Virus record (IMG/VR): IMGVR_UViG_3300013936_000015
Location: 1-64,000 of that record
Reading direction: 5' to 3' (one strand)
Source of the DNA: a virus
Lineage: Duplodnaviria; Caudoviricetes
DNA length: 64,000 bases
The notes below the pieces were generated by a model. That model searched no databases. It was not told the origin of the DNA and saw only the letters and a program-made list of their open reading frames with translations. Each line of letters opens with the position of its first letter. The stretch's first letter is position 1. Position numbers and translations under genes: made by a program. This document shows, piece by piece, positions 2,492 to 34,466 of this stretch.

Positions 2492-2813
2492 TCTAAGAGT
2501 AATCTTAATTATAATATTATTATGTGTAGTCTGTTTGATTTTTATAGGTTTGTTTAGAACTAATATAAGAGTTAAACAGACACATTCTATTGATACTATT
2601 ATATAGTCAGAAAAAATCTATAGAGATAGTTTGAAGATAAAGAATACATAGATAGATAATAAAATCTATAATGTAAATAAGAATTATGAGAAAACGGTTA
2701 CTAGGATTATTAATCAGCCTTATGATTCCGATATTCTGTTTATCAAAAACTATCTATCAAGATACACTATTGACTCAACAGGATTACAAGAAGATAGCTC
2801 TTATCTTAAATGA
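2469..2813 (+). CDS. putative inner-membrane spanin-like protein (3 in-frame TAG read as Gln)
   Basis: MDCKK(Q)NSLRVILIIILLCVVCLIFIGLF: TM helix then coiled-coil-like region; ends TGA 2811-2813. Confidence 0.6.
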
Positions 2814-3051
2814 ACATAATAAATTAAAAATAGAGAATAAATTGTTATATTAGAAAATTGGTAATTATGACAAATTACTTAAATCTTATGATAAAACAGA
2901 TTCTCTTTATAGATGGCAATTAAATGTTTATAAAAATGACTTAGATAGTAAAGAAGAGGAGATTACCCTTTTAAATAAAAAGGCATCTATCTATAAAACA
3001 GCTAGTTTTGTATTAGTATTAGGGTGGATAATGTACTTAATCCTAAAATAA
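2686..3051 (+). CDS. putative spanin partner (signal-like N-terminus, coiled coil, C-terminal TM; 1 in-frame TAG)
   Basis: MRKRLLGLLISLMIPIFCLS...KLLY(Q)KIG...ASFVLVLGWIMYLILK*; overlaps the previous gene in another frame, as spanin pairs do. Confidence 0.55.
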
Positions 3052-3347
3052 ATAGTATTACTATAAAAGCTCAATGTGTTCTAATACAAGATGAGATAAA
3101 TGGATATACTAATATTGTATTTAAGAATCTAGAATCTACTACTTGGTTCAATAAATATATTATGTGTGTCCGTTATCCTAATTGGCAAGGAGCTTTTCCA
3201 CAGCTAAATGATATAGGATATTTACAATATTCTTATGTATTGGCTGGAACTCAATACTTTGATAAAAAGTCGCAAGACTTTAGATGTTATGGATATAATC
3301 ATATTAGATTTGATAAATTTTTGAAAGATAATGAAGAAGAAGATTAA
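3024..3347 (+). CDS. conserved hypothetical phage protein
   Basis: ORF track; beta-rich, YIMCVRYPNW motif. Confidence 0.65.
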   Translation: MDNVLNPKINSITIKAQCVLIQDEINGYTNIVFKNLESTTWFNKYIMCVRYPNWQGAFPQLNDIGYLQYSYVLAGTQYFDKKSQDFRCYGYNHIRFDKFLKDNEEED

Positions 3348-3361
3348 TTAGAATTAAATTT

Positions 3362-4315
3362 ATGGGAATTAGTATTATTGGAGAGAAGTTAAAGGAAGCA
3401 CAGCGTAAAAAGAATGAAGAGCGTGAATTAGCAAAGAATGATATGAACAACTGGTTTTGGAAGGGTCCAAAGAAAGTTGTTGCAGGTATAAGAATGCAAT
3501 CCAAAGAGAAATTGCTTGATGCTTCTTTAGAGCAACTAAAGACATGGTATAATCATTGTTATGAAATGCTATGGAATAAGAATGCTACTAATCCGGGAAG
3601 ATATGTCTTAAAGGATATAGTTGATGATCAGATTCTTAATTGTGGTACAGAATTATTAATTAGACTACAAGAGAATCGTTATAAGTCTAGCGATAGAGAA
3701 GCACTTCCAAGGACCTTATTCTATAAGGATCTCACTACATTACTTAGTTCCCCAGATACTAAAGATTCTATTGATACTAATAATTGGGATAAAATTCCAA
3801 TTAGAGCTTGTATTGCTAATTGTCCTGAAGAATTTAGAGATATTAATGCAAGAAAGGTATTAGATGGATGTTTAGGAAATCTTGGGAAATTTTCTAGAAA
3901 GCATATCACTCTTACATTTATTTTGAATATGGGGATAAATCTTACAGAAGAAGAGCTTTCTCTATTTAAAACAGAAGCTCCAAATATAATGGAAGCTGTT
4001 AAAAATAAGCTAGGTATTCCTGATAACTTCAAAATAAAAAGAAAATCTAATGGATTAACTTATAAGGAATTACAATCTATTATTCATATTAAAGAGATTG
4101 ATTATACTTCTATGTCTAATGAGGTTCTTTTGCTTTTAAGAGATAAGATGCTTCCAAGATTATTAGATGAAATTTATAAACAAATCTATATGTGGGAAGA
4201 TCTTCTTGATAAGCTAAATAAAGTAGCTATTAAGAATTTTGATACCACTCTTGATGATGGCACTACAAGCGGACAGAACAGAAAGACAGAAGAAGTGTCT
4301 AAAGAATTGGATTAA
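3362..4315 (+). CDS. hypothetical protein (317 aa)
   Basis: Long ORF with ATG start. Confidence 0.8.
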   Translation: MGISIIGEKLKEAQRKKNEERELAKNDMNNWFWKGPKKVVAGIRMQSKEKLLDASLEQLKTWYNHCYEMLWNKNATNPGRYVLKDIVDDQILNCGTELLIRLQENRYKSSDREALPRTLFYKDLTTLLSSPDTKDSIDTNNWDKIPIRACIANCPEEFRDINARKVLDGCLGNLGKFSRKHITLTFILNMGINLTEEELSLFKTEAPNIMEAVKNKLGIPDNFKIKRKSNGLTYKELQSIIHIKEIDYTSMSNEVLLLLRDKMLPRLLDEIYKQIYMWEDLLDKLNKVAIKNFDTTLDDGTTSGQNRKTEEVSKELD

Positions 4316-5861
4316 ATATAAATGTCAAGCTTGTATTGAGGCAGCTACTGGATTTGGTGCCCGTTATAAAATTTACATACAATTTATTAGATAGAAAATT
4401 TAAATTGTATGAATTTTTTAAAAATGGAAGCCGTTCTGTTCAGGAATGGACAGAATTATTATTGAGCAAAGTCGGTGAAAATTCTATATAGAATAATACC
4501 GAGGTAACAAAAGAACTTAAAAAGCCTTTTGCACTGTACAGCATAGAGAATGAACCTATAGAATAATTCAATTAATACATCAAATTATTCTATAGAATAT
4601 AATTTCTCCACGAGTGTTCAATACCCTAATGGGTAAAAATATATGCGGAACTTACTAGTAATAGTAAGAAAACAGGATAAAAAGCCTGTTGGTAACACAT
4701 TTGAAGACCTACATGGCCTCAATGGCAATATCATTACTTCAGAGGAAATATCCAGATCTAAAAAGTATTGTAATAGTACCAACAGAAATACTTCTTAATC
4801 AATGGAAAGACCAATTAAATAAATGGAAGTTATCAAATGTTGATGTAATTATTATAAATACTGCTATAAAACACACTTATACGTGTGATTTATTAATATT
4901 GGATGAGTGCCACCGTTATGCGGCTGATACTTTTAAAAGAGTTTTCGATGTTATTCACTATTCCTATGTACTTGGTTTAACTGCTACATTGGCTAGAACT
5001 GACGGGAAGGAAGAATATATAAAACGATTCTGCCCGATTTGTGATACAGTGTCTGTTAAAGAGTGCCTAGCTAATCATTGGGTATCTAATTATGACGAGT
5101 ATCTAGTTCTAATAGATGTGGATGATATTGATACTTATAAAGGCTACAATAAACAGTTTATTAAAGCATTTAGTTATTTTGATTTTGATTGGAATTTAGT
5201 TAATAAGTGTTCTGGTCCTAATGGATATAAGATGAAGAATCTTCTTGCCAGTCAAAGAGCCTCTTCTTCAGAAGGAAGGAAGACAGTATTAAAAGAGATT
5301 ACTTTAAATGCAGCACAAGTATTTAGATGGTTGCAAAAGAGAAAGTCTTTTATCTATAATCATCCTAAGAAGATAGAGATAGCCAAGAAAATTATGGATA
5401 ATTATCCAAATAAGAAACTTATTACTTTTAGTAGTAATATTAAAATGGCTAGAGCTCTTGAAGATGGTAAGTACTTGTATACCAGTAAGACTACCAAGAA
5501 AGAGGGAAAAATACTTATAGAAAACTTTAATAAACAAGAAAGTGGTCATTTACATACAGTAAAAAAAGCAGATGAAGGTCTGTCTGTTGATAATATTGAA
5601 ATAGCTATTATAGTAGGACTTACTTCTTCATCTACACAAGCAACACAGCGGTTAGGTAGAGTAATAAGATATCAGCCCGATAAAAAAGCACTTATATTTA
5701 ATCTTATTTTAAATAACACTGTTGAAGTAGAATGGTTTTTACGTGGACATGAGAAAAATGACTATATAACCATTAAAGAATCAGAGTTAGATAATGTATT
5801 AAATGAAAAGGAATATTCAGAATATGAACTTCCTTTACTTAGATCAATAAATAAAGAATGA
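4254..5861 (+). CDS. SF2 DExH helicase (ResIII/XPB-like), spliced: exon1 4254-4358, exon2 4704-5861
   Basis: Joining the exons restores Walker A AATGFG|KT; DECH, LTAT and QRLGR motifs are in exon 2. Confidence 0.88.
4359..4703 (+). mobile_element. group I intron (ORF-less) in helicase Walker A
   Basis: Exon ends in U, intron ends in G; GGU pairs with GCC (U.G wobble) at the base of a long P1 hairpin; group I core-like segments (gtcggtgaaa...aataccgag, aatatatgcggaac). Confidence 0.85.
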
Positions 5862-5929: not shown

Positions 5930-6541
5930 GTGGGAGAATTAAACATTGATAATGAGAGTATTATACTCTTAAACTATAATCTAAGCCCAAATGAGTTGTA
6001 TGCAATAAAATGTATCCTATATTATATAGATGGACATAAGGAATATTTTAAGCGGTATATGAAGCTCCCGGAAAGTCTGAGGGGCAATTTAATAGACCTA
6101 TTAGAGGGACTAAAGAAGAAACATATTGTATGTGTTAATTCTAAAATTAAATTTAATAAAGAGGATTATGATTCTCTTGGTACTGTAAAATTTAATTCTA
6201 GTTTTACTAATGGATATTATAGAGCTTCCAGAGAGTTAGGAGAAGAATTATATCGTATATATCCTAGTTCTACTTGGATTAATGGAATAGAAACTCCATT
6301 AAGAACTGTAGCAGCTAAATTTAATTCCTTAGAAGAAGCATTCGACAGATATGCCAAAGATATCCATAATAATAATGAAACTCATAAGGAAGTATTAAAG
6401 ATTGTCAATTGGGCAAAAACAAATGACAGACTTAATATGAGTTTAGGGTCATTTATTGTAAATAACAGCTGGTTAGATCTAAAAGAAATAAAAGATGGAA
6501 AAGTAGGAAATTATAATCCCGATTGTATTAGATTAATATGA
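5930..6541 (+). CDS. putative replication initiator/helicase-loader-like protein
   Basis: GTG start; directly upstream of and overlapping DnaB. Function inferred from position only. Confidence 0.5.
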   Translation: MGELNIDNESIILLNYNLSPNELYAIKCILYYIDGHKEYFKRYMKLPESLRGNLIDLLEGLKKKHIVCVNSKIKFNKEDYDSLGTVKFNSSFTNGYYRASRELGEELYRIYPSSTWINGIETPLRTVAAKFNSLEEAFDRYAKDIHNNNETHKEVLKIVNWAKTNDRLNMSLGSFIVNNSWLDLKEIKDGKVGNYNPDCIRLI

Positions 6542-7617
6542 TAGTAGACTCTTTATTATCTAAAATCGAAGAAGGAAGAGAAGGAAAGAATCAAGGATTT
6601 TCTATGGGGATTCCTAAATTAGAAGGAGTAGTTGATGGAATTACTAAACAAACATATTCTGTTATTTTTTCTGGTTCAGGAAGTGGAAAGACCTCATTAG
6701 TTCTCTATTCTTATGTTTATTCTCCTTTAAAAGAACACTTAGATGATGATAATTTTAGAATTGTATATTTCTCAGCAGAAATGAGTGCTGATTTAGTAAT
6801 GGCTAAATTATTAGTAACTCATATCTTTGAAACATATCATATTCAATTATCAGTAAAAGAGATATTATCAAGAAAGAAGGGACACGTATTAAGTAATGAT
6901 AACTATAACATTATTAAGGAGTGTATTCCTTGGTTAAAAAAGGTAGAATCTAAAATATTAATACATGATAGATCTATTAATGCTAATTTTATCTATGCAT
7001 TTCTAAAACAAGATTTAGAAAGGTATGGTAAATTTAACGTACAGACCAATCATACAGTATATACTCCTAATAATCCAGATATGGTGTATGAAGTAATCAT
7101 AGATCATATCAGTCTCCTAAGACCCCATGACGGACGTACTCTTAAACAAGAGATAGATCTAACTTCTAAGTATTTACTTACTCTTAGGAATATTGCCGGG
7201 ATTAGTCCTGTCGTTATTCAACAAGCTAATAGAGAGCAGGGAAATGCAGAAAGAAGAAGACAAGGAGGATTTGGTTTTACATTGCTCGATACTAAAGATA
7301 GTGGTGGCCCTGTTCAAGATGCAGAAATTGTTATAGCTATTGATAATCCTTTTAGAGATAGAAGGAATGACTGTGATGGCTATAATGTTTCCATATTACA
7401 AGATAAATTCAGATTAATTGCTGTATTAAAATCTAGATATGGAGATTCTGACGTGAAAATGGGTGTAAATTATTTTGGAAATATCAATGTATGGAAAGAG
7501 CTTCCATTACCAAATGATATTTACGATTATAATAAATATACCACACCAGATTATATATATAGTGATACAAAAGATATTATAAAAGACTTAGATAGTAATG
7601 TAAACTTTAAATTATAA
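6538..7617 (+). CDS. dnaB: DnaB-like replicative helicase
   Basis: GSGSGKT Walker A, FSAEM, IIDHI, QQANR, KSRYG motifs. Confidence 0.88.
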   Translation: MIVDSLLSKIEEGREGKNQGFSMGIPKLEGVVDGITKQTYSVIFSGSGSGKTSLVLYSYVYSPLKEHLDDDNFRIVYFSAEMSADLVMAKLLVTHIFETYHIQLSVKEILSRKKGHVLSNDNYNIIKECIPWLKKVESKILIHDRSINANFIYAFLKQDLERYGKFNVQTNHTVYTPNNPDMVYEVIIDHISLLRPHDGRTLKQEIDLTSKYLLTLRNIAGISPVVIQQANREQGNAERRRQGGFGFTLLDTKDSGGPVQDAEIVIAIDNPFRDRRNDCDGYNVSILQDKFRLIAVLKSRYGDSDVKMGVNYFGNINVWKELPLPNDIYDYNKYTTPDYIYSDTKDIIKDLDSNVNFKL

Positions 7618-7623
7618 TGTATA

Positions 7624-8313
7624 ATGGCTGAAATGTTAGCTGTAGTAGGCGAGAGTGGTAGCGGTAAGACTACAAGTATTAGGAATCTTAATCCAGAAGA
7701 GACTTTTATCATTAGTACTACTGGTAAACGCCCCGGAATCCCTGGAGCAAAGAAGAAATATCCTAATTTTAAATTAGTAGATAAAAAGCCTACTGGAAAT
7801 TTTTATGTTGCATCTGATGTAGATAGTATTAGTAAGATGCTAAAGGTTATTAATACTATCATGAAGCACATTAAAGTAGTCATTATTGACGATTATCAAT
7901 ATATCATGGGTTTCGAGGCTATGGATAAAGCTGAAGTGAAGTCTTTTGATAAGTATACTCAGATTGCACAGCATGCATATCAAGTATTAAAGGATGCTAT
8001 GAATATGCGTGATGATTTGTTTGTATGTGTTTTAACTCATAGTGATAATCAGGGGGATAAAATTAATCCTTATTATGTAATCAAGACTCAGGGTAAAATG
8101 TTGACAAATGTTATTACTCTTGAGGGTTTGTTTACATATGTACTATTTACTGATGTTAAGACTAATGAGGATGGTAAGCCAATGTATAGATTTAAAACAA
8201 ATAGTGATGGTACTTGTACTGCCAAGACTCCTATGGGGTTATTTGATGATTTATATATTGACAATGATTTGAATTTTGTAATTAATAAGATTAGAGAATA
8301 TAATGGTGACTAA
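7624..8313 (+). CDS. AAA-family ATPase (Sak4/AAA_24-like)
   Basis: GESGSGKTT, VIIDD, LTH, TAKTPMG. Confidence 0.8.
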   Translation: MAEMLAVVGESGSGKTTSIRNLNPEETFIISTTGKRPGIPGAKKKYPNFKLVDKKPTGNFYVASDVDSISKMLKVINTIMKHIKVVIIDDYQYIMGFEAMDKAEVKSFDKYTQIAQHAYQVLKDAMNMRDDLFVCVLTHSDNQGDKINPYYVIKTQGKMLTNVITLEGLFTYVLFTDVKTNEDGKPMYRFKTNSDGTCTAKTPMGLFDDLYIDNDLNFVINKIREYNGD

Positions 8314-20879: not shown

Positions 20880-21150
20880 TAGTCCCAAACAATTACAAAC
20901 ATTTAAAGATTTAAATATTAATTGTTTAGTAGAATATGAAACCTTTGATATGAATGAATATAGTCAAAGAAAGAAAGGGCTATCTTTAAAAAGATATTGG
21001 GGGGCACATATGGATCCTTTTGTGCTAATAAGTATAGATAATAAGCCTACAAAGGCTTTTTATTCAGAAGCATCAACAGAATATAATGCAGCAGAACAGT
21101 TAGTACAGTATCTTTCAGATATTTTTAAACCAGTAAATGATAATGAATGA
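20854..21150 (+). CDS. thioredoxin-fold-like protein lacking CxxC
   Basis: WGAHMDPFVLI resembles the cis-Pro region of the fold. Confidence 0.45.
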   Translation: MIKIQLVYDSPKQLQTFKDLNINCLVEYETFDMNEYSQRKKGLSLKRYWGAHMDPFVLISIDNKPTKAFYSEASTEYNAAEQLVQYLSDIFKPVNDNE

Positions 21151-22004
21151 AACCTATTACAACTGCAAGGAAATATACTAAAATTGATTCAAGAGGTTTG
21201 GCGTTTTATTTAAACACTATTGATGATTATAAAATTCTCACTCCAGAAGAAGAAATAGAGTTAGGAAAAGAAATACAAGAAGGAAATGAATATGCCAGAG
21301 AAAAATTAATTAACCATAATCTGAGATTTGTAGTAACCTGTGCTAAACACTATCAAAACAAAGGAGTACCCCTTGAAGATTTAATAGAAGAAGGAAATAT
21401 AGGATTAATGATAGCAGCAGATAAATGGGATTATAAAAGAAAAACACGATTTATTACTTGTGCATTATGGTGGATAAGACAACGAATAATTAATGCATTA
21501 AATAAAACATCTAGAACTATAAAACTACCACAAAATATCACAAATGTTGTTTATAGAATGAACAGGTATGGTACTATAGCAGAACAGAAAGCTGAACGAG
21601 AGTTAAGTAACCGTGAGATGGCTACTGTCTGCAAATGTCATGCCCGAGCAATACAAACAGCAAAAAATGCTTTAACTGTTAAAAATTCTCTAGATGCTCC
21701 TATTCCAAACTGTGATAACGAATCTCTGACATTATCAGATGTATTACCCAGTTTTGATAATATAGAAGTAGAAAGTAGAGAAGAAACAATAAATCAAATA
21801 TTACATTCTAACATCTTATCTGATATAGAACGTATAGTTCTAATGAACTATTTTGATTTTAATGGTGCACATTATACATTACAGTCTATTGGATTGAAAT
21901 ATTGTATGTCCGCCACAAGAACTAAAAAAATAAAAGATAAAGCATTAGTAAAACTAAAAAAGTATTTTCCAACAATTTTAAAAGAACTTTATTATGAGCA
22001 ATGA
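21147..22004 (+). CDS. sigma-70 family RNA polymerase sigma factor
   Basis: YL...LTPEEE; NLRFVVTCAKHY; DLIEEGNIGL; FITCALWWIRQ; SLDAP; region 4 HTH. Confidence 0.9.
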   Translation: MKPITTARKYTKIDSRGLAFYLNTIDDYKILTPEEEIELGKEIQEGNEYAREKLINHNLRFVVTCAKHYQNKGVPLEDLIEEGNIGLMIAADKWDYKRKTRFITCALWWIRQRIINALNKTSRTIKLPQNITNVVYRMNRYGTIAEQKAERELSNREMATVCKCHARAIQTAKNALTVKNSLDAPIPNCDNESLTLSDVLPSFDNIEVESREETINQILHSNILSDIERIVLMNYFDFNGAHYTLQSIGLKYCMSATRTKKIKDKALVKLKKYFPTILKELYYEQ

Positions 22005-22515
22005 CAAAAATGTAAAGGTAATTAACGTTAGTAATAATGAATTACCTAAATATGAAACTCCATTGTCCGCAGGTATGGATGTGCGAGTAGATTTTAGTAG
22101 AGTGCATGAGCACCCTATTAAGGTTTATGGTGATGGAAATTATGTTCCGGCTACAGAAGTTCAAAAGACAAATTGTTTGTATCTAGAACCATTCAGTAGG
22201 GCACTTATCCCTACTGGATTATTTATGGCTATTCCAGAAGGATATGAGATTCAGGTAAGACCAAGAAGCGGGCTTGCATTAAAAGAGGGAATTACAATGG
22301 CAAATTGCATTGGAACTATTGATGCAGACTACCGTAATGAAGTTGGTATTATTGTTATTAATCTTTCTAATAAAGTAGTATGTATTGAAGATGGGGAAAG
22401 AATAGGACAACTTGTATTGAATAAAGTAGATAAAATTAATTGGAAAGAAGTCTCACATATTAGTGAGCTTGGAGATACAGAACGTAAAGGTGGATTTGGA
22501 AGTACAGGAAAATGA
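21994..22515 (+). CDS. dut: dUTPase
   Basis: SAGMD, RPRSGLA, GTIDADYR, GERIGQ, RKGGFGSTG. Confidence 0.95.
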   Translation: MSNDKNVKVINVSNNELPKYETPLSAGMDVRVDFSRVHEHPIKVYGDGNYVPATEVQKTNCLYLEPFSRALIPTGLFMAIPEGYEIQVRPRSGLALKEGITMANCIGTIDADYRNEVGIIVINLSNKVVCIEDGERIGQLVLNKVDKINWKEVSHISELGDTERKGGFGSTGK

Positions 22516-23093: not shown

Positions 23094-23121
23094 GGCCAGT
23101 AGTAAATCTACTGGCCTTTTT
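23094..23121 (+). terminator. rho-independent terminator
   Basis: ggccagtag/ctactggcc stem plus T5. Confidence 0.75.
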
Positions 23122-23125
23122 GTTT

Positions 23126-24373
23126 ATGGGAGAACTTGAATTATTTAATACACCTATAGAAGAAACAAGATACTTCGCTTCTATTGATAGTAGAGGAAAT
23201 ATTAGATGTGTTAATCTAAAGTATAAAAAGATACCACCAGATAATTATCAAATATTAAGAACTACATTTCAATATAAATGTAGGAGGATAGAACAACCTC
23301 CTATTATCATTAATGGTGCTAAAAAAGGAAATTATAAAGCAACTGAACTAAAATTTAAATCTTTAGCAAAAGAATATCTTGATAAAGGATATAAAGAATT
23401 AGATAAATGCGGAGATGATTATGACTTAGCCACTCTTAAAGGTATAGTAGGTGATTATAAAACAGATAAGACGGGACTATTAAAGCCTATGCTATGTAAA
23501 ATGGCAAAGAGTGTTACTAATAAGAAAATATTTGATAAAGAATACTATGCCAGCAGGAAATTAGATGGGGTGAGATCTTGTATCTATTATGATAGTAAAA
23601 GAAAATGTCTTCGGGCAAGAAGTAGAACAGCCATTGATTTGGATTTTCCATTAAAGCATATATTAGAAATCCCTAAATTTATTAAATTGTTTGAAAAGAA
23701 TCCCGATTTAGTATTAGATGGGGAAGTCTATAAACATGGAATGCCTTTAAATAGAATTAGTGGATTGTGTAGAAGTCAACAAACTGCATATGATTCTGAT
23801 GTATTAGAATTTTATATGTATGATATAGTTGATGTCAATCTTACTTTTCAAGAAAGGTTGGAAAAGATGTATAAAATTAGGGATGAGCTGAATCTTTCTT
23901 TTGACCCTTATAGACAGTGGGACAGCTATGATTTGAAAGTTCAATTTGTTCCACAAGTTAAAATAAGTGGTTGGGATAATATTGTTAAACTACATAATAA
24001 ATATGTAGAAGAGGGATTTGAGGGTCTTGTGATAAGACTTGCTTCTGCTAAATATGGTCCGGGTAAAAGAAATAACAATATGATAAAAGTAAAAATGTAT
24101 AATGAAAATACTTTTAAATGTATTGGTATAGAGCAAGGATTAAGAATGTATGATGATATGGTCTTTATTATGGAAACTAGAGAAGGGAAAACCTTCAAAG
24201 CAAAACCCCTTGGAGACCATGAACAAAAAGTAGAGTATACTAATAATTTCCAATTTTATAAAAATAAACTGGGTGATTGTAAATATTTCAATATCTCAGA
24301 ATATGGAATACCTACACAACCGTCTTTTATTGCATTTAGATTCGATCTGACAGAAGCTGACTTACATGACTGA
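23126..24373 (+). CDS. lig: ATP-dependent DNA ligase
   Basis: PML, RKLDGVR, LDGEVY, MYD, EGLVIR, KVK motifs. Confidence 0.9.
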   Translation: MGELELFNTPIEETRYFASIDSRGNIRCVNLKYKKIPPDNYQILRTTFQYKCRRIEQPPIIINGAKKGNYKATELKFKSLAKEYLDKGYKELDKCGDDYDLATLKGIVGDYKTDKTGLLKPMLCKMAKSVTNKKIFDKEYYASRKLDGVRSCIYYDSKRKCLRARSRTAIDLDFPLKHILEIPKFIKLFEKNPDLVLDGEVYKHGMPLNRISGLCRSQQTAYDSDVLEFYMYDIVDVNLTFQERLEKMYKIRDELNLSFDPYRQWDSYDLKVQFVPQVKISGWDNIVKLHNKYVEEGFEGLVIRLASAKYGPGKRNNNMIKVKMYNENTFKCIGIEQGLRMYDDMVFIMETREGKTFKAKPLGDHEQKVEYTNNFQFYKNKLGDCKYFNISEYGIPTQPSFIAFRFDLTEADLHD

Positions 24374-24743: not shown

Positions 24744-24769
24744 AAGGCTGGAGAAATCCAGCCTTTTTT
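24744..24769 (+). terminator. rho-independent terminator
   Basis: aaggctgga-GAAA-tccagcctt plus a T run. Confidence 0.85.
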
Positions 24770-24777
24770 GTTTTTAT

Positions 24778-25086
24778 ATGATAACACTTGATAAAAATGA
24801 TGTGACAATATCACATACAGACACTTTTACTGACAGTGGAAAAATTTATCATCACAAGATTATATTAAATCTTACTCCACTGCAGCTTAGTAAGTATAAT
24901 AGATATGTAAAATCTAAATCAGAGAATTTAGAATATCCTATATATAGAAAATTATTCTTTCAACCATTACATATAGGAGATAATTATATTAATCAAAATA
25001 CATATAGAGAAATAGTAACATTTTTTAATATTAAAACGCCAGAATTAAAAAATGAAAATACCATCATTCAAATTAAAATCAAATAA
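24778..25086 (+). CDS. hypothetical protein (tandem paralog 1)
   Basis: Similar to 25105..25416. Confidence 0.7.
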   Translation: MITLDKNDVTISHTDTFTDSGKIYHHKIILNLTPLQLSKYNRYVKSKSENLEYPIYRKLFFQPLHIGDNYINQNTYREIVTFFNIKTPELKNENTIIQIKIK

Positions 25087-25104
25087 GTTCACTATTAAAC
25101 TATA

Positions 25105-25416
25105 ATGGAAAGAGTTCTAAATAAAAATGTAAAAATATCCTATCAAGCTAAAGAGCATGAAGGGTATATTTATAGACAGATGATAGCATTAACCATTTCA
25201 TCCTCACAATTAAAAGAATTTAATTGTCACGTAACAAATACAGTATCTTATACAAATAACACTTATACTAAAATATTTCTTAAACCCTTAAAAGAAGGGG
25301 ATAATTATACTAATTGTACCACTTTTCTTACTGCAATAAATACTTTTAATCTTGTAAATAATAAGAGATTAAAATTTAACCGGAATACTGTTGTCAGAAT
25401 TAAAATAAAGAAATAA
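25105..25416 (+). CDS. hypothetical protein (tandem paralog 2)
   Basis: Shares Y-x-K-x-F-x-x-PL-x-x-GDNY with the previous gene. Confidence 0.7.
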   Translation: MERVLNKNVKISYQAKEHEGYIYRQMIALTISSSQLKEFNCHVTNTVSYTNNTYTKIFLKPLKEGDNYTNCTTFLTAINTFNLVNNKRLKFNRNTVVRIKIKK

Positions 25417-25575
25417 AATGGAAATACTTTTATACAGATATAAGCTGTTTTTTGACAGCATTAGTTAGAGTAATTATAAATAGAGATTCTATATCAATTC
25501 TAGATGAATCTAAATATATTGAATCTCAGAAATATATTGCCATAAATACAAATCTTAAAAATATAAAATTCTATA

Positions 25576-25953
25576 ATGAGAAGAATATTATTCAGAGCAA
25601 GTAGGTTGGATAACAAACATATAATAATAGGTTCTCTTATTCAACATTCAGAAGATGGGGATGTATATATAGAAACTTATGATTCTGAAAGAGTCCCAGT
25701 AGATAAAAATACTGTATCACAATTTACTGGATATTATGCAAAGAATCATAAACCTATATTTGAAGGTGATACAGTAGAATATACAAATGTTTATGGAGTA
25801 CATGTAAAGGTTACTGGCAAAGTAATATGGGACGATGATAGATATATGATACGCATCAAAGACTGTGAACATTTAAGAGATAACCAAATAGAACTTCCTA
25901 GAAAAGATCTATCTGAAAACTATTTAACATTAATAGAATATGATGCCAATTGA
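25576..25953 (+). CDS. YopX family protein
   Basis: MRRILFRA...TVSQFTG...IFEGD. Confidence 0.8.
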   Translation: MRRILFRASRLDNKHIIIGSLIQHSEDGDVYIETYDSERVPVDKNTVSQFTGYYAKNHKPIFEGDTVEYTNVYGVHVKVTGKVIWDDDRYMIRIKDCEHLRDNQIELPRKDLSENYLTLIEYDAN

Positions 25954-26344
25954 ATCTTTAGAAAAACTATATAAAAATTATAACGGAGTAACTATCCGTG
26001 ATGATGGAATGTGGGTATCTAAAAAATTTAGAAAATTTCAAAGATACATCAATAATATGGCAGAAGATATTGCACATTATCTGAATGCAAATCTTGTACA
26101 AGTAAATAGAGGATATTATGAAGGATCATTTTTCTTTGAAAGAGATGGAAAATATGCATATGTACATTATGGAAATAGTTTGAATCGTACACATATTAAT
26201 TTTGATGCAAAAGGCGGAGTAGAAGGATTCTTCTTTTGCAGATCTGCACAAGATAAAAATGACTATGTGGGAGGAGGAAATGTCTTTGTAACATTAAAAG
26301 AATTACCAGAACGATTAAATGATCTATTAGAATACGGACATTAA
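25940..26344 (+). CDS. hypothetical protein
   Basis: ORF track. Confidence 0.7.
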   Translation: MMPIESLEKLYKNYNGVTIRDDGMWVSKKFRKFQRYINNMAEDIAHYLNANLVQVNRGYYEGSFFFERDGKYAYVHYGNSLNRTHINFDAKGGVEGFFFCRSAQDKNDYVGGGNVFVTLKELPERLNDLLEYGH

Positions 26345-26452
26345 AAACACAATAGTTAAATAGTTCTTGATTTATCTGGTATGGATGATCCAACTTTTAT
26401 TTATGATATTATAAATAAACAAGATTTTACATTTTAAATATATCTTTACATT

Positions 26453-26680
26453 ATGTACTCATTTCAATTAAGTAAGGCTATTAAAATAGCTAAAGAAACC
26501 AGTAAGACTGTATATATTGCAACTTCTAATCAATCCTTTTGTATCGATTTCAATTATTGTAAATATACAGTAGATTCAATGTATGATTTTCTTATTATTG
26601 AGGACTCTTTTTTGGATGATACTATCATCATTGATATTAAAAATATAATATTTGTAGAAACAAAGTTAAAACACCTATGA
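26453..26680 (+). CDS. hypothetical protein
   Basis: ORF track; ATGA coupling. Confidence 0.6.
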   Translation: MYSFQLSKAIKIAKETSKTVYIATSNQSFCIDFNYCKYTVDSMYDFLIIEDSFLDDTIIIDIKNIIFVETKLKHL

Positions 26681-26868
26681 AACTTTATCAAATTTGGAAA
26701 GAAGTAACAACGTTTACAAGAAAAGGACCTGCACATATTATACGGCCAGCATCTATGCATCCTTCTGTTTTTACTAACAAGAAAAGAGCAGAAGAATCTC
26801 TACCACATAGTATTCATCATCCTAATGGATATACTAAATTCTTTGTAAAAGAAATAGATGTAGAATGA
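26677..26868 (+). CDS. hypothetical protein
   Basis: ORF track; ATGA coupling. Confidence 0.55.
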   Translation: MKLYQIWKEVTTFTRKGPAHIIRPASMHPSVFTNKKRAEESLPHSIHHPNGYTKFFVKEIDVE

Positions 26869-27062
26869 GATTTAAATATAAAAATCTATATTACATTTAT
26901 CTGATTGCTACCATAGTTTTAATATTGCTAAAATTAACCGGACACGCCTATGTAAATTGGATAGTCCTTCTAACTCCAATATGGCTTCCTTTAATTTTTG
27001 CAATTTTATACTTGCTTGTATTTTTTATTTTGGTCATTGTGGCAATTATTAGAAATTGTTGA
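26865..27062 (+). CDS. small membrane protein
   Basis: LILLKLTG...NWIVLLTPIWLP; hydrophobic helices. Confidence 0.7.
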   Translation: MRFKYKNLYYIYLIATIVLILLKLTGHAYVNWIVLLTPIWLPLIFAILYLLVFFILVIVAIIRNC

Positions 27063-27168
27063 AAATACCTCTACGAGCTTCATACAGACCCGTGGGGATA
27101 TGTTCCATATAAAGGTGAATAACTATAAGACTATGATAAAAATTTGTCAGTCAGAGGGCTAATTTAAT

Positions 27169-27387
27169 ATGAAAAAGAAAAGTAAAATAAAACCATTTAG
27201 TTTTACGTATACGTGTGAAAATAATGATGAAATTACTGTTTCTGAAGGGGAGAATTTCGGAGAATATGATGTATTACTAAAAAGTAGGGGATTATGTAGA
27301 AGATTTAATATAACACTGGAAGAATTAGATGCTGTAAATTTTGTTATAAAGTCTTTTTTATTAGACCCTATAATTTTAACAAATTAA
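27169..27387 (+). CDS. hypothetical protein
   Basis: ORF track. Confidence 0.6.
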   Translation: MKKKSKIKPFSFTYTCENNDEITVSEGENFGEYDVLLKSRGLCRRFNITLEELDAVNFVIKSFLLDPIILTN

Positions 27388-27420
27388 ACAGATTTTATCA
27401 GAAATATCGATTATATTAGA

Positions 27421-27770
27421 AGTGAGAGAAATCTCCTATCTTAGTGGTGTTTAGCAGTTTCGTTTGACCACATAATAAAAACCTCAAACAGTGGGAGTAT
27501 TCCCTGTCTCGTATAAGGATGGTGTAAATCCCGCAACGTCCGACCGCCTGACGACGGGTGCCGATGAGTTTTATAACTTCAACACCAGATTCGATACATG
27601 GCAATCCTTGGCCTTATATGAGTCGACCTCTTAAATTTTATAGATATAGCCAAACTATAGAATTGAAAATAGTAATGTAGTAGCATGAAGAGGTTTATCC
27701 GATGTATAATCGGTTCTTTTTTCAAGAATCTATTACATCGGCATAGAGGCGGTGTATCTATATGTGAAGT
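27421..27770 (+). ncRNA. candidate large structured non-coding RNA of unknown family
   Basis: GC-enriched gap with no convincing ORF; many stems, a GAAA tetraloop, and long-range accgcct/aggcggt pairing. Confidence 0.5.
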
Positions 27771-27773
27771 GTT

Positions 27774-28073
27774 ATGATAGGATATGAACAATTTAGGAAA
27801 TTAATAAACAATTACTCTAATCAGTGGAAAGAAATAGATCATTTATCAGATATGGGAATTGATATTTTAAATTCTAAATTCTATATGAACTACAATGATT
27901 TATTTATTCTGACATTAGAGAATCTTATTAAAAGAAAAGATGATATTGAATTAGTGTTTGATTATTTTAGAAATATAGATAGTTCAGTTACTTATGATAA
28001 TATAGAATATAACTGTTCTACAATAAGAGGTTTGTATTATTATCTTGTAGACAGTAAAGGATTTTATTTATAA
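27774..28073 (+). CDS. hypothetical protein
   Basis: ORF track. Confidence 0.7.
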   Translation: MIGYEQFRKLINNYSNQWKEIDHLSDMGIDILNSKFYMNYNDLFILTLENLIKRKDDIELVFDYFRNIDSSVTYDNIEYNCSTIRGLYYYLVDSKGFYL

Positions 28074-28086
28074 CCTTTCACAACTC

Positions 28087-28124
28087 TCCCCTATGAGCCT
28101 GTAATGGGCTTATAGGGGATTTTT
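28087..28124 (+). terminator. rho-independent terminator
   Basis: tcccctatgagcc/ggcttatagggga stem plus a T run. Confidence 0.8.
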
Positions 28125-28196: not shown

Positions 28197-30428
28197 ATGA
28201 TTTATTTGGTAAGTAAACAAACGGAATTATTTAAATCAGATGCTTATGAGAAAATAGATCCTAACAAAGCTATTGAATTATTATCTAAAGAAAGCATATT
28301 AGGTGCAGATACTGAGACTACTGGATTAAATCCTGTAACTAGTCATATCCTTACTATTCAACTAGGTAATGAAGATTTTCAAATAGTATGGGATTGTACT
28401 AGTTATCCTATTACATTATTAAAAAGGGTATTAGAAAATCCAGATATTAAGTATATATGGCACAATTATTGCTTTGACGGGATGTTTCTATTAAAAGAAG
28501 GTATTGTACAAACTAATTACTTCGATACCTTAATAGGAGAAAGAGTTCTTAATAATGGTAAGCCTAGAGATATGTATTCTGTGTCATTAAAAGCATGTGC
28601 ATTAAAGTACTGTGATTATGATATGGATAAAACAGCAAGAGGGGAGATAATATCTAAAGGATTGACTGAAAGGACTATTGTTTATTCTGCTACAGATGTA
28701 AAGTATTCTATTCCTATCTATGAAGCACAACAAAAGGAACTTGAAAAATATGAAGTTAAAAAAGCTGCGGAATTTGAATCTAAATTTACTATTGTAGTAG
28801 CATATACTAAGTTATGTGGAGTAAAACTAGATGTTCCAAGATGGAAGAAAAAGATGGCTATAGATGAAGAGAAAAGAGAAAAATGGTTGTCTAAATTAAA
28901 TTCTTGGATAATAGATTTTTATTCTAAACATAATGGAAAAGGGAATTATATAGAATATAAAGCCCTTGTCGATACTCAATTCATTCATCCATTTTCTGAA
29001 CATATTCCGGATGATTTACATTTTGTGAATATTACTTCTAAAAATCAGAAATTAGTAAAAGAATCTGATGAAAAATATGGATATAAAGTATATTCTATTA
29101 GTAAGGTTCCATTTGGATATACTGCTAATAATACATTTCATCCATATATAGAACATATAGATGTAATACAACAAGATCTATTTGCACCTACAACAGAAAC
29201 ATTTGGAGATAAATGTGTTATTAATTGGTCCAGTAGTAATCAGGTAATTCCTCTATTTGAATTATTAGGATTTAATGTAGAAACTCTTGATAAAAAGACA
29301 AAACAAACAAGAAAATCTGCAGATAAAACACTTATAGCAGCACAAAAGAATGTATCTTCTATTGCAGAATTATATGTTAAATATAAAGAAGCTGCAAAAG
29401 TCTGTGAAGCTTTTGGAAAGAATTTCTTAGACAATATAACACCAGAAGACGGGAGAATCCATGCTGATTTTAATCCAATAGGAGCTGACACATTTAGAAT
29501 GTCTTGTGGGGGTAGTAAGGGAGGAGTTAACTTACAACAATTACCATCTGATGCAGAAACAAGAGCGTGTTTTATTAGTGAAAAGGGTAATAAATGGATT
29601 AGTGTAGATTATGAGGGTCAAGAATCTAGACTAATTGCTTCCGTTACAGGCGATAAAGCATTAATTAATATATTTACAGAGGGTTGTGGAGATGTCCATT
29701 CTCTTGTAGCATATATGACATATCCTCATCTTATTCCAAGAGATACAAAGATAGAGGATATAAAGAAAAAATATCATAACCTTAGACAAGATGCTAAAAA
29801 AGTGGAGTTCGCGATTAATTATGCAGGTAATGAATACACCATTGCCAATAATGGTGGGATTCCTATTGATGAAGCTAAGGTTATTTATAATAATTATATG
29901 AAGGGTTTTCCGGGAATGGAAGCATATCAGAAATATTGTAAGAAAGATGTTATGGAAAGAGGGTATATTCAAATGAATAATGTTACTGGTGCAAAAGCAT
30001 TTGCCTATGATTGGGATAGACTCTCTCAAGTACAAGAAGAAATGAAAGACCCTAATTTCTGGTCTACTTATAAGAAAGACCCTATATTAAAAGAAGAATA
30101 TAATTATTATAAGAAGAGAAAAGCAGAACTTGGAAAACAATCTGTAAACTATAGGATACAAAACCGAGGTGCAGGATGTTTTAAGCTGGCTTCTATGTTG
30201 ATGTTTAAATGGGTAGTAGATAATAACCTACTTGGAAAGGTTAAATTCTGTATACCCGTCCACGATGAATGGAACATAGAAGCACCAGATGATATAGCAC
30301 AAGATGTAGCTAAAGTATTATTAAAATGTATGGAAAAAGGAGCAAAACCTTTCTGTGATAAATTACCTCTTCCCGGTGATTTGTCCACACTAAAAGATGG
30401 AACACTCCCTAATTATTGGATTCATTAA
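28197..30428 (+). CDS. polA: DNA polymerase family A with 3'-5' exonuclease
   Basis: DTETTGL, HNYCFD, YSATD; motif A DYEGQESR, motif B RQDAKKVEFAINY, motif C VHDE. Confidence 0.93.
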   Translation: MIYLVSKQTELFKSDAYEKIDPNKAIELLSKESILGADTETTGLNPVTSHILTIQLGNEDFQIVWDCTSYPITLLKRVLENPDIKYIWHNYCFDGMFLLKEGIVQTNYFDTLIGERVLNNGKPRDMYSVSLKACALKYCDYDMDKTARGEIISKGLTERTIVYSATDVKYSIPIYEAQQKELEKYEVKKAAEFESKFTIVVAYTKLCGVKLDVPRWKKKMAIDEEKREKWLSKLNSWIIDFYSKHNGKGNYIEYKALVDTQFIHPFSEHIPDDLHFVNITSKNQKLVKESDEKYGYKVYSISKVPFGYTANNTFHPYIEHIDVIQQDLFAPTTETFGDKCVINWSSSNQVIPLFELLGFNVETLDKKTKQTRKSADKTLIAAQKNVSSIAELYVKYKEAAKVCEAFGKNFLDNITPEDGRIHADFNPIGADTFRMSCGGSKGGVNLQQLPSDAETRACFISEKGNKWISVDYEGQESRLIASVTGDKALINIFTEGCGDVHSLVAYMTYPHLIPRDTKIEDIKKKYHNLRQDAKKVEFAINYAGNEYTIANNGGIPIDEAKVIYNNYMKGFPGMEAYQKYCKKDVMERGYIQMNNVTGAKAFAYDWDRLSQVQEEMKDPNFWSTYKKDPILKEEYNYYKKRKAELGKQSVNYRIQNRGAGCFKLASMLMFKWVVDNNLLGKVKFCIPVHDEWNIEAPDDIAQDVAKVLLKCMEKGAKPFCDKLPLPGDLSTLKDGTLPNYWIH

Positions 30429-31902: not shown

Positions 31903-32744
31903 GTAGAAATAATATTTTAAAAGGTATTGAGATTATACAAAAAATTAAAAATAGTAATCTTAGTAAGGAAGAGGCTCTAATTTTAGTACAAGAAGATTCA
32001 GAGCTTACAGAAATACTTAATAAGTATTATTTACAAAATGAACCCTGTACAACAGAAATTAATATAAATAGTATTACTTCCCAAATGGTGTACGTACAGG
32101 GTGGCACATTCATGATGGGTGCCACTTCCGAGCAAGGCTGCGCTGCCTATTCTGATGAGAAGCCTGCCCACAGGGTGACGCTCAGCGGATTCTATATCGG
32201 GAAGTATGAGGTCACGCAGTCGCTTTGGCGTGCCGTGATGTGCTACAACCCCTCAAGATTCAAGGGTGACAACCTTCCCGTAGAGATGGTAAGTTGGGAC
32301 GATTGCCAGCAATTCATCAAGAAACTGAACGCCCTTACGGGGAAGAGCTTCCGCCTGCCTACCGAAGCAGAGTGGGAGTATGCTGCACGAGGCGGCAACC
32401 AAAGCCGGCACTTTCAGTACAGCGGCAGCGACAATTTGGACGATGTGGCATGGTATTATGACAACAGTAACAAGAAAACACACCCCGTAGGGACGAAGCA
32501 ACCAAACGAGTTGGGACTGTATGACATGAGCGGCAACGTATGGGAATGGTGTCAGGACTGGTATGGCAGCTACAGCAGCGATGCCAAAACCGATCCCAAG
32601 GGACCTTCTAATGGGTCTCTCCGCGTGCGTCGGGGCGGCGGCTGGTACAACAATGCCAGGGGCTGCCGGTCGTCGAGTCGTAGCAACACTACTCCCGGCA
32701 GCAGCAGCGACGGCCTCGGGCTACGCTTGGCCCTCTCCGAATAA
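31899..32744 (+). CDS. FGE-sulfatase/SUMF1 (C-type lectin fold) domain protein with DGR-like variable C-terminus
   Basis: GGTFMMG, YEVTQ, RLPTEAEWEYAARG, PNELGLYDMSGNVWEWCQD, RVRRGGGW...CRS...GLRL. Confidence 0.88.
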   Translation: MSRNNILKGIEIIQKIKNSNLSKEEALILVQEDSELTEILNKYYLQNEPCTTEININSITSQMVYVQGGTFMMGATSEQGCAAYSDEKPAHRVTLSGFYIGKYEVTQSLWRAVMCYNPSRFKGDNLPVEMVSWDDCQQFIKKLNALTGKSFRLPTEAEWEYAARGGNQSRHFQYSGSDNLDDVAWYYDNSNKKTHPVGTKQPNELGLYDMSGNVWEWCQDWYGSYSSDAKTDPKGPSNGSLRVRRGGGWYNNARGCRSSSRSNTTPGSSSDGLGLRLALSE

Positions 32745-32791
32745 TAAATTAAAATAATAAATTAAAGTTAATCTTTTAAATATAAAAATAT

Positions 32792-33019
32792 ATGGAAAAG
32801 TTTCAAGAGAATATGTGTAATGAATATCATGAGTTGAAATATCGAATGGGTAAACTGGCTGAAGCTCTTTCTTCTAAAGAGTTTAAAGCGAAAGTTGGTA
32901 ATAAACAATATGAATTATTAGAAAAACAAGCTGAAGCTATGGGAAAGTATTTTCATTATCTATCACTGCGTTTAGAAGATATGGGATTGCTTACAGACCC
33001 AGAAGATTATGGAGTATAA
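32792..33019 (+). CDS. small coiled-coil phage protein (crAss001_48-like)
   Basis: EYHELKYRMGKL...LLEKQAEAMGKYFHYLSLR. Confidence 0.6.
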   Translation: MEKFQENMCNEYHELKYRMGKLAEALSSKEFKAKVGNKQYELLEKQAEAMGKYFHYLSLRLEDMGLLTDPEDYGV

Positions 33020-34377: not shown

Positions 34378-34421
34378 TAAGGGGATGGATCTAGTATTTA
34401 GGTTCATCCCCTTATTTTTTT
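34378..34421 (+). terminator. terminator closing the + arm
   Basis: taaggggatgga/ttcatcccctta stem plus a T run. Confidence 0.8.
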
Positions 34422-34429
34422 ATACAAAC

Positions 34430-34466
34430 AAGCCCCTTAGTGACCTTTTTGGTTGCTAAGGGGCTT
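34430..34466. terminator. second hairpin at the convergence point (likely terminator for the - arm)
   Basis: aagccccttagtgacc/ggttgctaaggggctt stem. Confidence 0.7.

Follow-up and report, generated by a model that had tools for sequence, protein, structure and literature searches.

A new and strongly constrained RNA fold with two pseudoknots was established on the + strand of a crAss-like phage genome, where it forms an accessory, exchanged cassette. The element covers positions 27438-27760 (+, 323 nt) of the window, i.e. of the whole analysed stretch of 64,000 nucleotides, which represents the first 64 kb of a virus contig of 136.5 kb (76% complete). Fold, strand and distribution of the family were determined from homologues, and the element matches no known family of Rfam 15. 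We favour, with somewhat better than even confidence, the view that it is a stand-alone, trans-acting structured ncRNA of a new class with an accessory role; the start of transcription, the action in trans and the role are the parts of this reading that we infer. A first-pass annotation of the DNA had proposed a novel, ornate structured ncRNA with a long-range pseudoknot at this place. This proposal is now backed by covariation over five lineages and by the lack of Rfam and ARAGORN matches.

The crAss-like phages are among the most abundant human gut viruses. The nucleotide conservation of the element equals or exceeds that of the surrounding replication proteins, yet it is dispensable and movable, and its exchange extends to lineages with only about half of the DNA polymerase residues in common. 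Accessory weapons and selfish elements typically behave in this way, and RNA-only cases of either are rare. Furthermore, a covariance model was gained which can be used to find more copies in gut viromes, and the element, being small and well defined, lends itself to ribozyme assays, to probing of the structure and to mapping of metatranscriptomes.

Locus and surroundings

The stretch had been noticed as a GC-enriched gap without ORFs, and both observations held. Only non-conserved ORFs of at most 70 aa occur at 27400-27780 on either strand, with translation table 11 or with TAG read as Q. The GC content is 0.41-0.47 at 27400-27624 and 0.20-0.33 on both flanks; the level with which the GC-rich element (41-47%) was compared is about 25%. 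The element is situated in the replication module, with genes for a family-A DNA polymerase (PolA), a ligase and a helicase nearby. The following features of the window are relevant:

21147-22004, phage-encoded sigma-70-type factor
21994-22515, dUTPase
23120-24373, ATP-dependent ligase, preceded by a DUF7222 gene
27169-27387, upstream ORF of 72 aa, no family match
27438-27760 (+), RNA element
27774-28073 (+), downstream ORF of 99 aa, no family match, not conserved beside the RNA in other lineages
28087-28119 (+), strong terminator between the 99-aa ORF and PolA
28197-30428, PolA, 3' of this terminator

On the + strand of the window strong intrinsic terminators were found at 22 sites, compared with 4.8 expected in shuffles (for example 23094-23116, 24744-24765, 28087-28119 and 34378-34466), and the early arm is split into units by them. 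The unit that holds the RNA extends from 24765 to 28087. A comparison of the window with the relatives L001, L218 and L205 revealed that sigma factor, ligase and small ORFs follow each other in a different order in phages that are otherwise related.

The record has a second gene arm, which is interrupted by TAG codons. Outside the window, ARAGORN detected a tRNA cluster at 121209-133738 with a CUA (amber suppressor) tRNA at 121209-121281. Two calls of the program contain long introns, a Gln-CUG tRNA with 385 nt (131849-132330) and a Ser-UGA tRNA with 310 nt (133207-133604). Both could be false calls, or else tRNA genes with group I introns.

Homologues of the element

Ten further copies were identified, so that 11 are known including the window. 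L001 and L002, two IMG/VR contigs found via PolA relatives (PolA 74%), contain a stretch with 82% identity to the element. A pattern scan of metagenomes yielded six copies (L070-L073, L075 and L076) on contigs of up to 176 kb. Two copies were detected through PolA relatives in a large protein collection, a close one in L218 (PolA 77%) and a diverged one in L205 (PolA 69%; 57% identity). With the covariance model, 87.5 bits were obtained for L205 and 300-430 bits for the nine other further copies. The copies belong to five sequence lineages, in which the element is located as follows:

Window: before the 99-aa ORF and PolA
L218: directly after the ligase
L001, L002 and L070: in L001 before an 88-aa ORF, a 96-aa ORF and the ligase
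L071-L076: in L076 with a DUF7831 gene on one side and an intron-split metallophosphatase on the other
L205: followed by a 72-aa ORF, with the dUTPase several genes further downstream

The conserved unit was set at 27438-27760, because the flanks of L001 and L002 fail to align with the window and the flanking ORFs are not homologous. Compared with these two contigs, conservation stops sharply at both ends of the unit, with the 3' limit about 7 nt past 27753. The RNA of the window is 77-83% identical to the other main-group copies at the nucleotide level; for the neighbouring proteins the range is 25-77%. Nine of the ten main-group copies agree in all of the first 57 nt (27438-27494), L218 has one change, and of the remaining core columns only about 67% are invariant. 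In L205 the first 57 nt differ and covary. Hence, their invariance does not characterise the family as a whole but the main group, or it reflects a recent exchange within this group.

No match was found with blastn against 50,697 GenBank phage records. Pattern scans of IMG/VR returned only the two contigs found via PolA, and one further scan and a probe with the exact window sequence returned nothing. A loose pattern gave 120 chance hits over genome contigs, all of which were rejected by the covariance model. With the models R1 and R2 no match was detected in 40 more distant crAss-like contigs or, except for L205, around PolA in relatives with 46-70% PolA identity. In L206 and L207, gaps resembling candidate sites turned out to be coding or AT-rich sequence. 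Two probes from the invariant 5' block were compared with 185,579 species genomes; no host copy and no significant complementarity were found, and the three hits correspond to chance expectation. Thus, an attP core or a mimic of a host RNA is disfavoured. In the collections searched, the family is confined to five lineages of large crAss-like phages. It is small, and most of the covariation stems from few branches.

About 1 kb without a called gene directly follows PolA in L214 (7667-8665) and L215 (11188-12186), which belong to a phage group with 68% PolA identity. R2 gave no match there.

Secondary structure and covariation

The structure was built by hand and tested on model-based alignments. 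For the main group, nine sequences were used; 75 pairs, arranged in 13 helices and with both 3' pseudoknot strands included, were 99.7% paired. Double changes were found for 18 of these pairs, compared with 0-3 when the partners were slid. An alignment of ten sequences, with L205 and L218 added and the 5' pseudoknot included, comprised 67 pairs with 98.9% of the cells paired. Compensatory double changes occurred in 31 of the 67, against 2-6 in slid controls, and none of 500 shuffles reached this level of covariation. The alignments are model-fitted and the structure was drawn from the same sequences in which the changes were counted, so that the percentages paired are inflated, but the excess of double changes over the slid controls is far beyond such bias. 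Folding of the single sequence exceeded shuffles only modestly (z = -1.88 for the + strand, -1.50 for the - strand). Hence, the case rests on the comparative evidence.

The fold of the element comprises two H-type pseudoknots and no fewer than 13 helices. In most sequences nine or more of the pairs are G-U, which would be C-A on the opposite strand. Because of these many conserved G-U pairs, the + strand is the RNA. The elements of the structure are:

27444-27489 (+), 5' H-type pseudoknot with S1 27444-48/27467-71 and S2 27462-66/27485-89, 100% paired
27472-84 (+), A-rich loop 3 of the 5' pseudoknot, 13 nt
27493-27504 (+), hairpin H2 (GGGA-GUAU-UCCC), two compensatory pairs
27508-27622 (+), central multi-helix domain with H3, H4, H4a, H4b and H3b
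27508-18/27612-22 (+), H3, closes the central domain, double changes in 8 of 11 pairs
27520-25/27582-87 (+), H4, double changes in 5 of 6 pairs
27530-33/27555-58 and 27537-40/27550-53 (+), H4a, two-part hairpin, covaries
27566-70/27575-79 (+), H4b, main group only
27597-601/27606-10 (+), H3b, main group only
27625-32/27688-95 (+), H5, closes the domain 27625-27695, two pairs with double changes
27638-43/27655-60 (+), H5a, double changes in 4 of 6 pairs
27675-78/27683-86 (+), H5b, hairpin inside the H5 domain
27543-49/27747-53 (+), pseudoknot PK-A, H4a loop with 3' end, three complementary versions
27699-27742 (+), variable 3' arm with competing pairings
27699-706/27734-41 (+), helix ii of the 3' arm, in all five lineages, 15 bp in L205
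27699-703/27709-13 (+), H6, local hairpin, four different complementary versions
27714-28 (+), variable hairpin of the 3' arm
27560-66 (GCCGAUG)/27736-42 (+), PK-B, alternative pairing, main group only
27424-27435 (+), GAGA-GAAA-TCTC hairpin, this genome only, outside the conserved unit

In L205 both stems of the 5' pseudoknot are exchanged, with GACCA/UGGUC in place of GUGGU/ACCAC for S1 and GUUCU/AGAAC in place of GUUUG/CAAAC for S2. At the positions of PK-A the copies contain ACCGCCU/AGGCGGU, ACCCUCU/AGAGGGU or, in L205, AGUUCU/AGAACU. The H5 domain (27625-27695) has the conserved junction UUGAAAAUAGUA.

Most pairings which had been proposed from the window sequence alone were recovered: seven of these stems are conserved, and six of the seven covary in the homologues. 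gtggt/accac corresponds to S1 (27444-48/27467-71), GGGA/TCCC to H2 (27493-96/27501-04) and cgtc/gacg to the inner part of H4a (27537-40/27550-53), while ggtg/cacc and cctctt/aagagg are parts of H4 and H5, respectively. The complementarity of accgcct and aggcggt at a distance of 200 nt, suggested as a possible pseudoknot, is the true pseudoknot PK-A, as its three different complementary versions indicate. ccgatgta/tacatcgg is helix ii, which is conserved in every lineage with mostly wobble-preserving changes. Two suggestions had to be abandoned. The alternative pairing gtggga/tcccgc clashes with covarying helices, and the GAGA-GAAA-TCTC stem, situated 5' of the conserved unit, has no counterpart in any homologue.

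The 3' arm contains competing pairings. The strand CAUCGG (27736-41) pairs with 27699-706 in helix ii or, in the main group only, with 27560-66 in PK-B; with PK-B formed, 27699-703 makes the local hairpin H6. PK-B is invariant and never covaries, is missing in L205 and competes with the universal helix ii. Hence, helix ii was taken as the family-level pairing and PK-B was demoted to an alternative. PK-B together with H6 is a possible alternative state of the 3' arm.

Comparison with catalogued RNAs and other candidates

The whole window was searched with the 4227 models of Rfam 15, which include GOLLD, ROOL, HEARO, OLE, raiA, RNase P, tmRNA, 6S, riboswitches and self-cleaving ribozymes, and no match was obtained at the gathering threshold. 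At E<=10, only chance hits of snoRNA type with at most 20 bits were found for the window, L205 and L218 variants. The element is no catalogued family, and the novelty assumed by the first-pass annotation was kept. Literature searches revealed no description of an ncRNA or structured RNA gene in crAss-like phages.

The former impression that the element is not a tRNA, tmRNA, RNase P or group I intron proved to be correct. There is no Rfam or ARAGORN match for these classes; ARAGORN found no tRNA or tmRNA gene in the window, and the tRNAs of the genome are situated at 121-134 kb. A group I intron disagrees with the context, as each flanking ORF is complete and stands by itself, and no homology exists between those of different lineages. 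It also disagrees with the topology, which was compared by hand with the textbook arrangement (P3-P7, P4-P6 within P3, P8 between P3' and P7'): the crossing pairing of the element joins the H4a loop to the 3' terminus, and H4 encloses the 5' pseudoknot strand. RF00028 (group I) gave no match even at E<=10, and neither a conserved U before the 5' end nor a conserved G at the 3' end was found. In the window no intron was detected at the gathering threshold; therefore, the Rfam models may miss introns of this clade.

The template of a diversity-generating retroelement was rejected, since 27400-27790 has no similarity to 32000-32800 or to other parts of the window. The only reverse transcriptase of the genome is 61 kb away from the element and has its own template/variable repeat pair. 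It is encoded at 88925-89440 (-) of the same record, outside the window (PF00078, 74.9 bits, one in-frame TAG), beside a pair of 130-nt repeats with 80% identity (89754-89882 and 89910-90039). Enzyme gene and repeats (88925-90039) look like a diversity-generating retroelement.

An omega/reRNA or a retron ncRNA was rejected as well, with small ORFs of no known family, PolA and ligase as neighbours and no effector gene adjacent. PF07282 (TnpB-type) and PF01797 (Y1 transposase) are absent from the genome, which is 76% complete. A hammerhead was discarded, because the CUGANGA-like CUGACGA becomes CUGACAA in most lineages. For an antisense regulator of a phage gene, no complementarity of more than 13 nt to the rest of the phage genome was found.

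Expression signals and a possible role as leader

A TATATT at 27412-17 had been described as promoter-like. It is part of the -7-like box TATATTAG (27412-27419, +), which matches the Bacteroides-type consensus TAnnTTTG with one mismatch, and equivalent boxes are present upstream of every homologue. The corresponding boxes are:

L001: TATGTTTG
L205: TATATTTG
L076 group: TTTG-19nt-TACTTTTA
L218: TATATTTA

In every lineage the box is located 7-18 nt upstream of the conserved 5' end. The promoter consensus of Bacteroides is TTTG...TAnnTTTG. The boxes fit this consensus and are putative promoters. Beyond them, the upstream sequences of the lineages are unrelated, as would be expected if conservation begins at the transcription start. 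Independent transcription of the element, which had been postulated before, is plausible from these signals.

A terminator after the element was found neither in the window nor in L001 and L076. The CCGAT hairpin with a T-run at 27699-27722 is terminator-like but not conserved. In every lineage the next ORF starts 13-60 nt downstream, and with no terminator between, the element may be only the 5' part of an mRNA. In L205 the motif GGAGG, resembling a Shine-Dalgarno site, is located 8 nt before the start of this ORF (4196-4221). Bacteroidota mostly lack Shine-Dalgarno sites, so the motif is unusual if the host belongs to this group.

It is conceivable, though we regard it as unlikely, that the element acts in cis as a promoter-proximal structured 5' UTR that controls the downstream gene and travels as a mobile regulatory cassette. 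Such a leader could sense a ligand or a protein as a switch, stabilise the mRNA as a cap structure or serve as an RNA for processive antitermination. It would agree with the short distance to the next start codon and with the orientation, which is the same as that of the neighbours in every lineage. Furthermore, the window terminator 28087-28119 sets the next ORF apart from PolA, and the two exclusive pairings of CAUCGG both look selected in the main group, as in RNA switches. However, the alternative pairing is missing in the L205 lineage, and in L001 and L076 the search for terminators downstream was negative. The genes that follow the element differ between lineages and are not related (a 99-aa ORF without known family, an 88-aa coiled-coil protein, a metallophosphatase, a 97-aa ORF), which argues against the gene-specific logic of a riboswitch. 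A gene-specific riboswitch or cis-regulator was rejected on this basis, as the downstream genes are unrelated in four lineages and only L205 and L001 share a homologous one. A length of about 320 nt with two pseudoknots also far exceeds the needs of a stabiliser.

Gain, loss and exchange of the cassette

At least five different intergenic sites are occupied across the lineages. L219 has 35 nt in place of the stretch 3796-4158 of L205, and its flanks show 75-80% identity. The ligase stop of L218 is separated from the next gene by about 420 nt, while the same two genes overlap in L001 (ATGATTAA). L076 contains the RNA and L207 does not, though the proteins on both sides are 66-93% identical; in L207 no model match was detected in 22 kb around PolA, including the stretch that corresponds to the L076 site. 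Similarities of RNA and proteins are incongruent. The L076 group is kin to phages with a PolA about 52% identical to that of the window, and one protein shared with the window is 45% identical in this group and 75% identical in L218. Its RNA, in contrast, is closer to the window (81-83%) than those of L218 or L001 (77%). In L205 the relation is reversed, with proteins 62-70% identical to those of the window and an RNA of only 57% identity. From the differing flanks and sites, the absence in close relatives and this incongruence, a horizontally exchanged accessory cassette was concluded; horizontal exchange of a dispensable cassette is the simplest reading of these comparisons. The first-pass annotation had not anticipated this mobility.

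Two genes of L076 appear to be interrupted: thyX seems to be split by an insert with a 259-aa ORF (2754-4745), and the metallophosphatase just 3' of the RNA seems to be split by an insert with a LAGLIDADG endonuclease (6082-7816). The replication arm of L207 contains a gene for a chaperonin of the Cpn60/GroEL family (6055-7620).

Filled and empty sites in close relatives, the number of insertion sites and the incongruent phylogeny would also suit a selfish mobile RNA whose fold serves its own spread, as a new ribozyme-based or guide-RNA-like element with an enzyme encoded elsewhere. Its 5' and 3' ends are precise and identical everywhere between unrelated flanks, and the genomes are full of homing endonucleases and introns. 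The motif TTAACA occurs 36-73 nt upstream of the element in four of the five lineages. The insert of L205 is flanked by TTAACA and TTAATA, and the empty site of L219 has a single TTAACA. A target duplication by such TTAA-type flanks is suggestive only, since in DNA of about 75% A+T they could arise by chance. Against a selfish RNA stand the single copy per genome, the lack of a gene for a TnpB-type or Y1 transposase in the genome (76% complete) and the distance of 61 kb to the only reverse transcriptase, which lies beside its own repeat pair. The helix order is unlike that of group I introns, and no intron or ribozyme of Rfam matches. We therefore rate this explanation as distinctly improbable.

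Proposed mode of action

For the favoured stand-alone ncRNA, a host-type (Bacteroidota-like) promoter a few bases upstream probably starts an RNA of about 320 nt. This RNA adopts a compact fold, in which the 5' H-type pseudoknot with its A-rich third loop is followed by two multi-helix domains, and the second pseudoknot anchors the H4a loop to the extreme 3' end. It is an accessory gene cassette with a fold under strong purifying selection. The cassette was gained, lost, moved between intergenic sites and exchanged among lineages in the early/replication arm. The carriers form a clade of TAG-recoded crAss-like phages with contigs of up to about 176 kb. The RNA may act in trans as a folded scaffold which binds a protein or a small molecule, or possibly as a catalyst, and the phage could gain a dispensable advantage from it, for instance in host takeover or counter-defence. 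A role in counter-defence or takeover is pure inference from the accessory, exchanged behaviour. A more far-reaching idea is a new RNA class with the double-pseudoknot fold as active part, either self-mobilising (of ribozyme or guide type, with TTAA-like sites) or an RNA-only factor for counter-defence or takeover. This idea we consider doubtful.

A DNA-level element, i.e. a replication origin or a recombination or packaging site with an incidental RNA-like fold, is very improbable. It would fit the location near the PolA, ligase and helicase genes and the first 57 nt, invariant in nine of ten main-group copies. In L205, however, this block is not invariant and covaries, and 13 helices as well as pairings over 200 nt are maintained by compensatory changes, with many G-U pairs that are possible on one strand only. 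This strand-specific covariation largely refutes the DNA-level reading. No GC-skew inflection was observed at the site, and a replication origin was rejected on both grounds. Moreover, close relatives, which also have to replicate, do not contain the element. An overlooked gene for a small protein, possibly with TAG read as an amino acid, is scarcely credible: + strand ORFs of 47-69 aa overlap the element, but homologues differ by indels of 1 and 2 nt within these only ORFs, which excludes coding, no reading frame is conserved over the element or kept in L001, L076 or L205, and substitutions pair across helices without codon periodicity.

Comparison with known systems

GOLLD and ROOL are large ornate ncRNAs of unknown function that are often carried by phages or prophages. 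The element is similar to them in being phage-borne, GC-enriched, multi-domain, pseudoknotted, non-coding, accessory and patchily distributed. In contrast, it matches neither model, has 300-340 nt instead of about 580-800 nt, is not located beside tRNA genes (at least 94 kb away) and is restricted to one crAss-like clade.

Group I introns, which are abundant in these phages, share with the element a similar size, a pseudoknotted core, a polymorphism of presence and absence and a genome rich in homing endonucleases. They differ, as the element lies between genes, has unrelated flanks and lacks the P3-P7 crossing.

PeSL elements of T4-type phages are short mobile units of promoter and hairpin. 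Like these, the element is a promoter-bearing non-coding cassette, which occupies different intergenic places of a plastic region with small early genes. Instead of a short promoter with a hairpin, however, it comprises 320 nt with 13 helices, a double pseudoknot and strong structural selection.

The omega/reRNA of IscB/TnpB (HEARO), the IS110 bridge RNA and the retron msr-msd are comparable as structured, pseudoknotted RNAs of 150-400 nt linked to mobility. Unlike them, the element has no TnpB or Y1 transposase gene adjacent or elsewhere in the genome, no adjacent reverse transcriptase and no match to HEARO.
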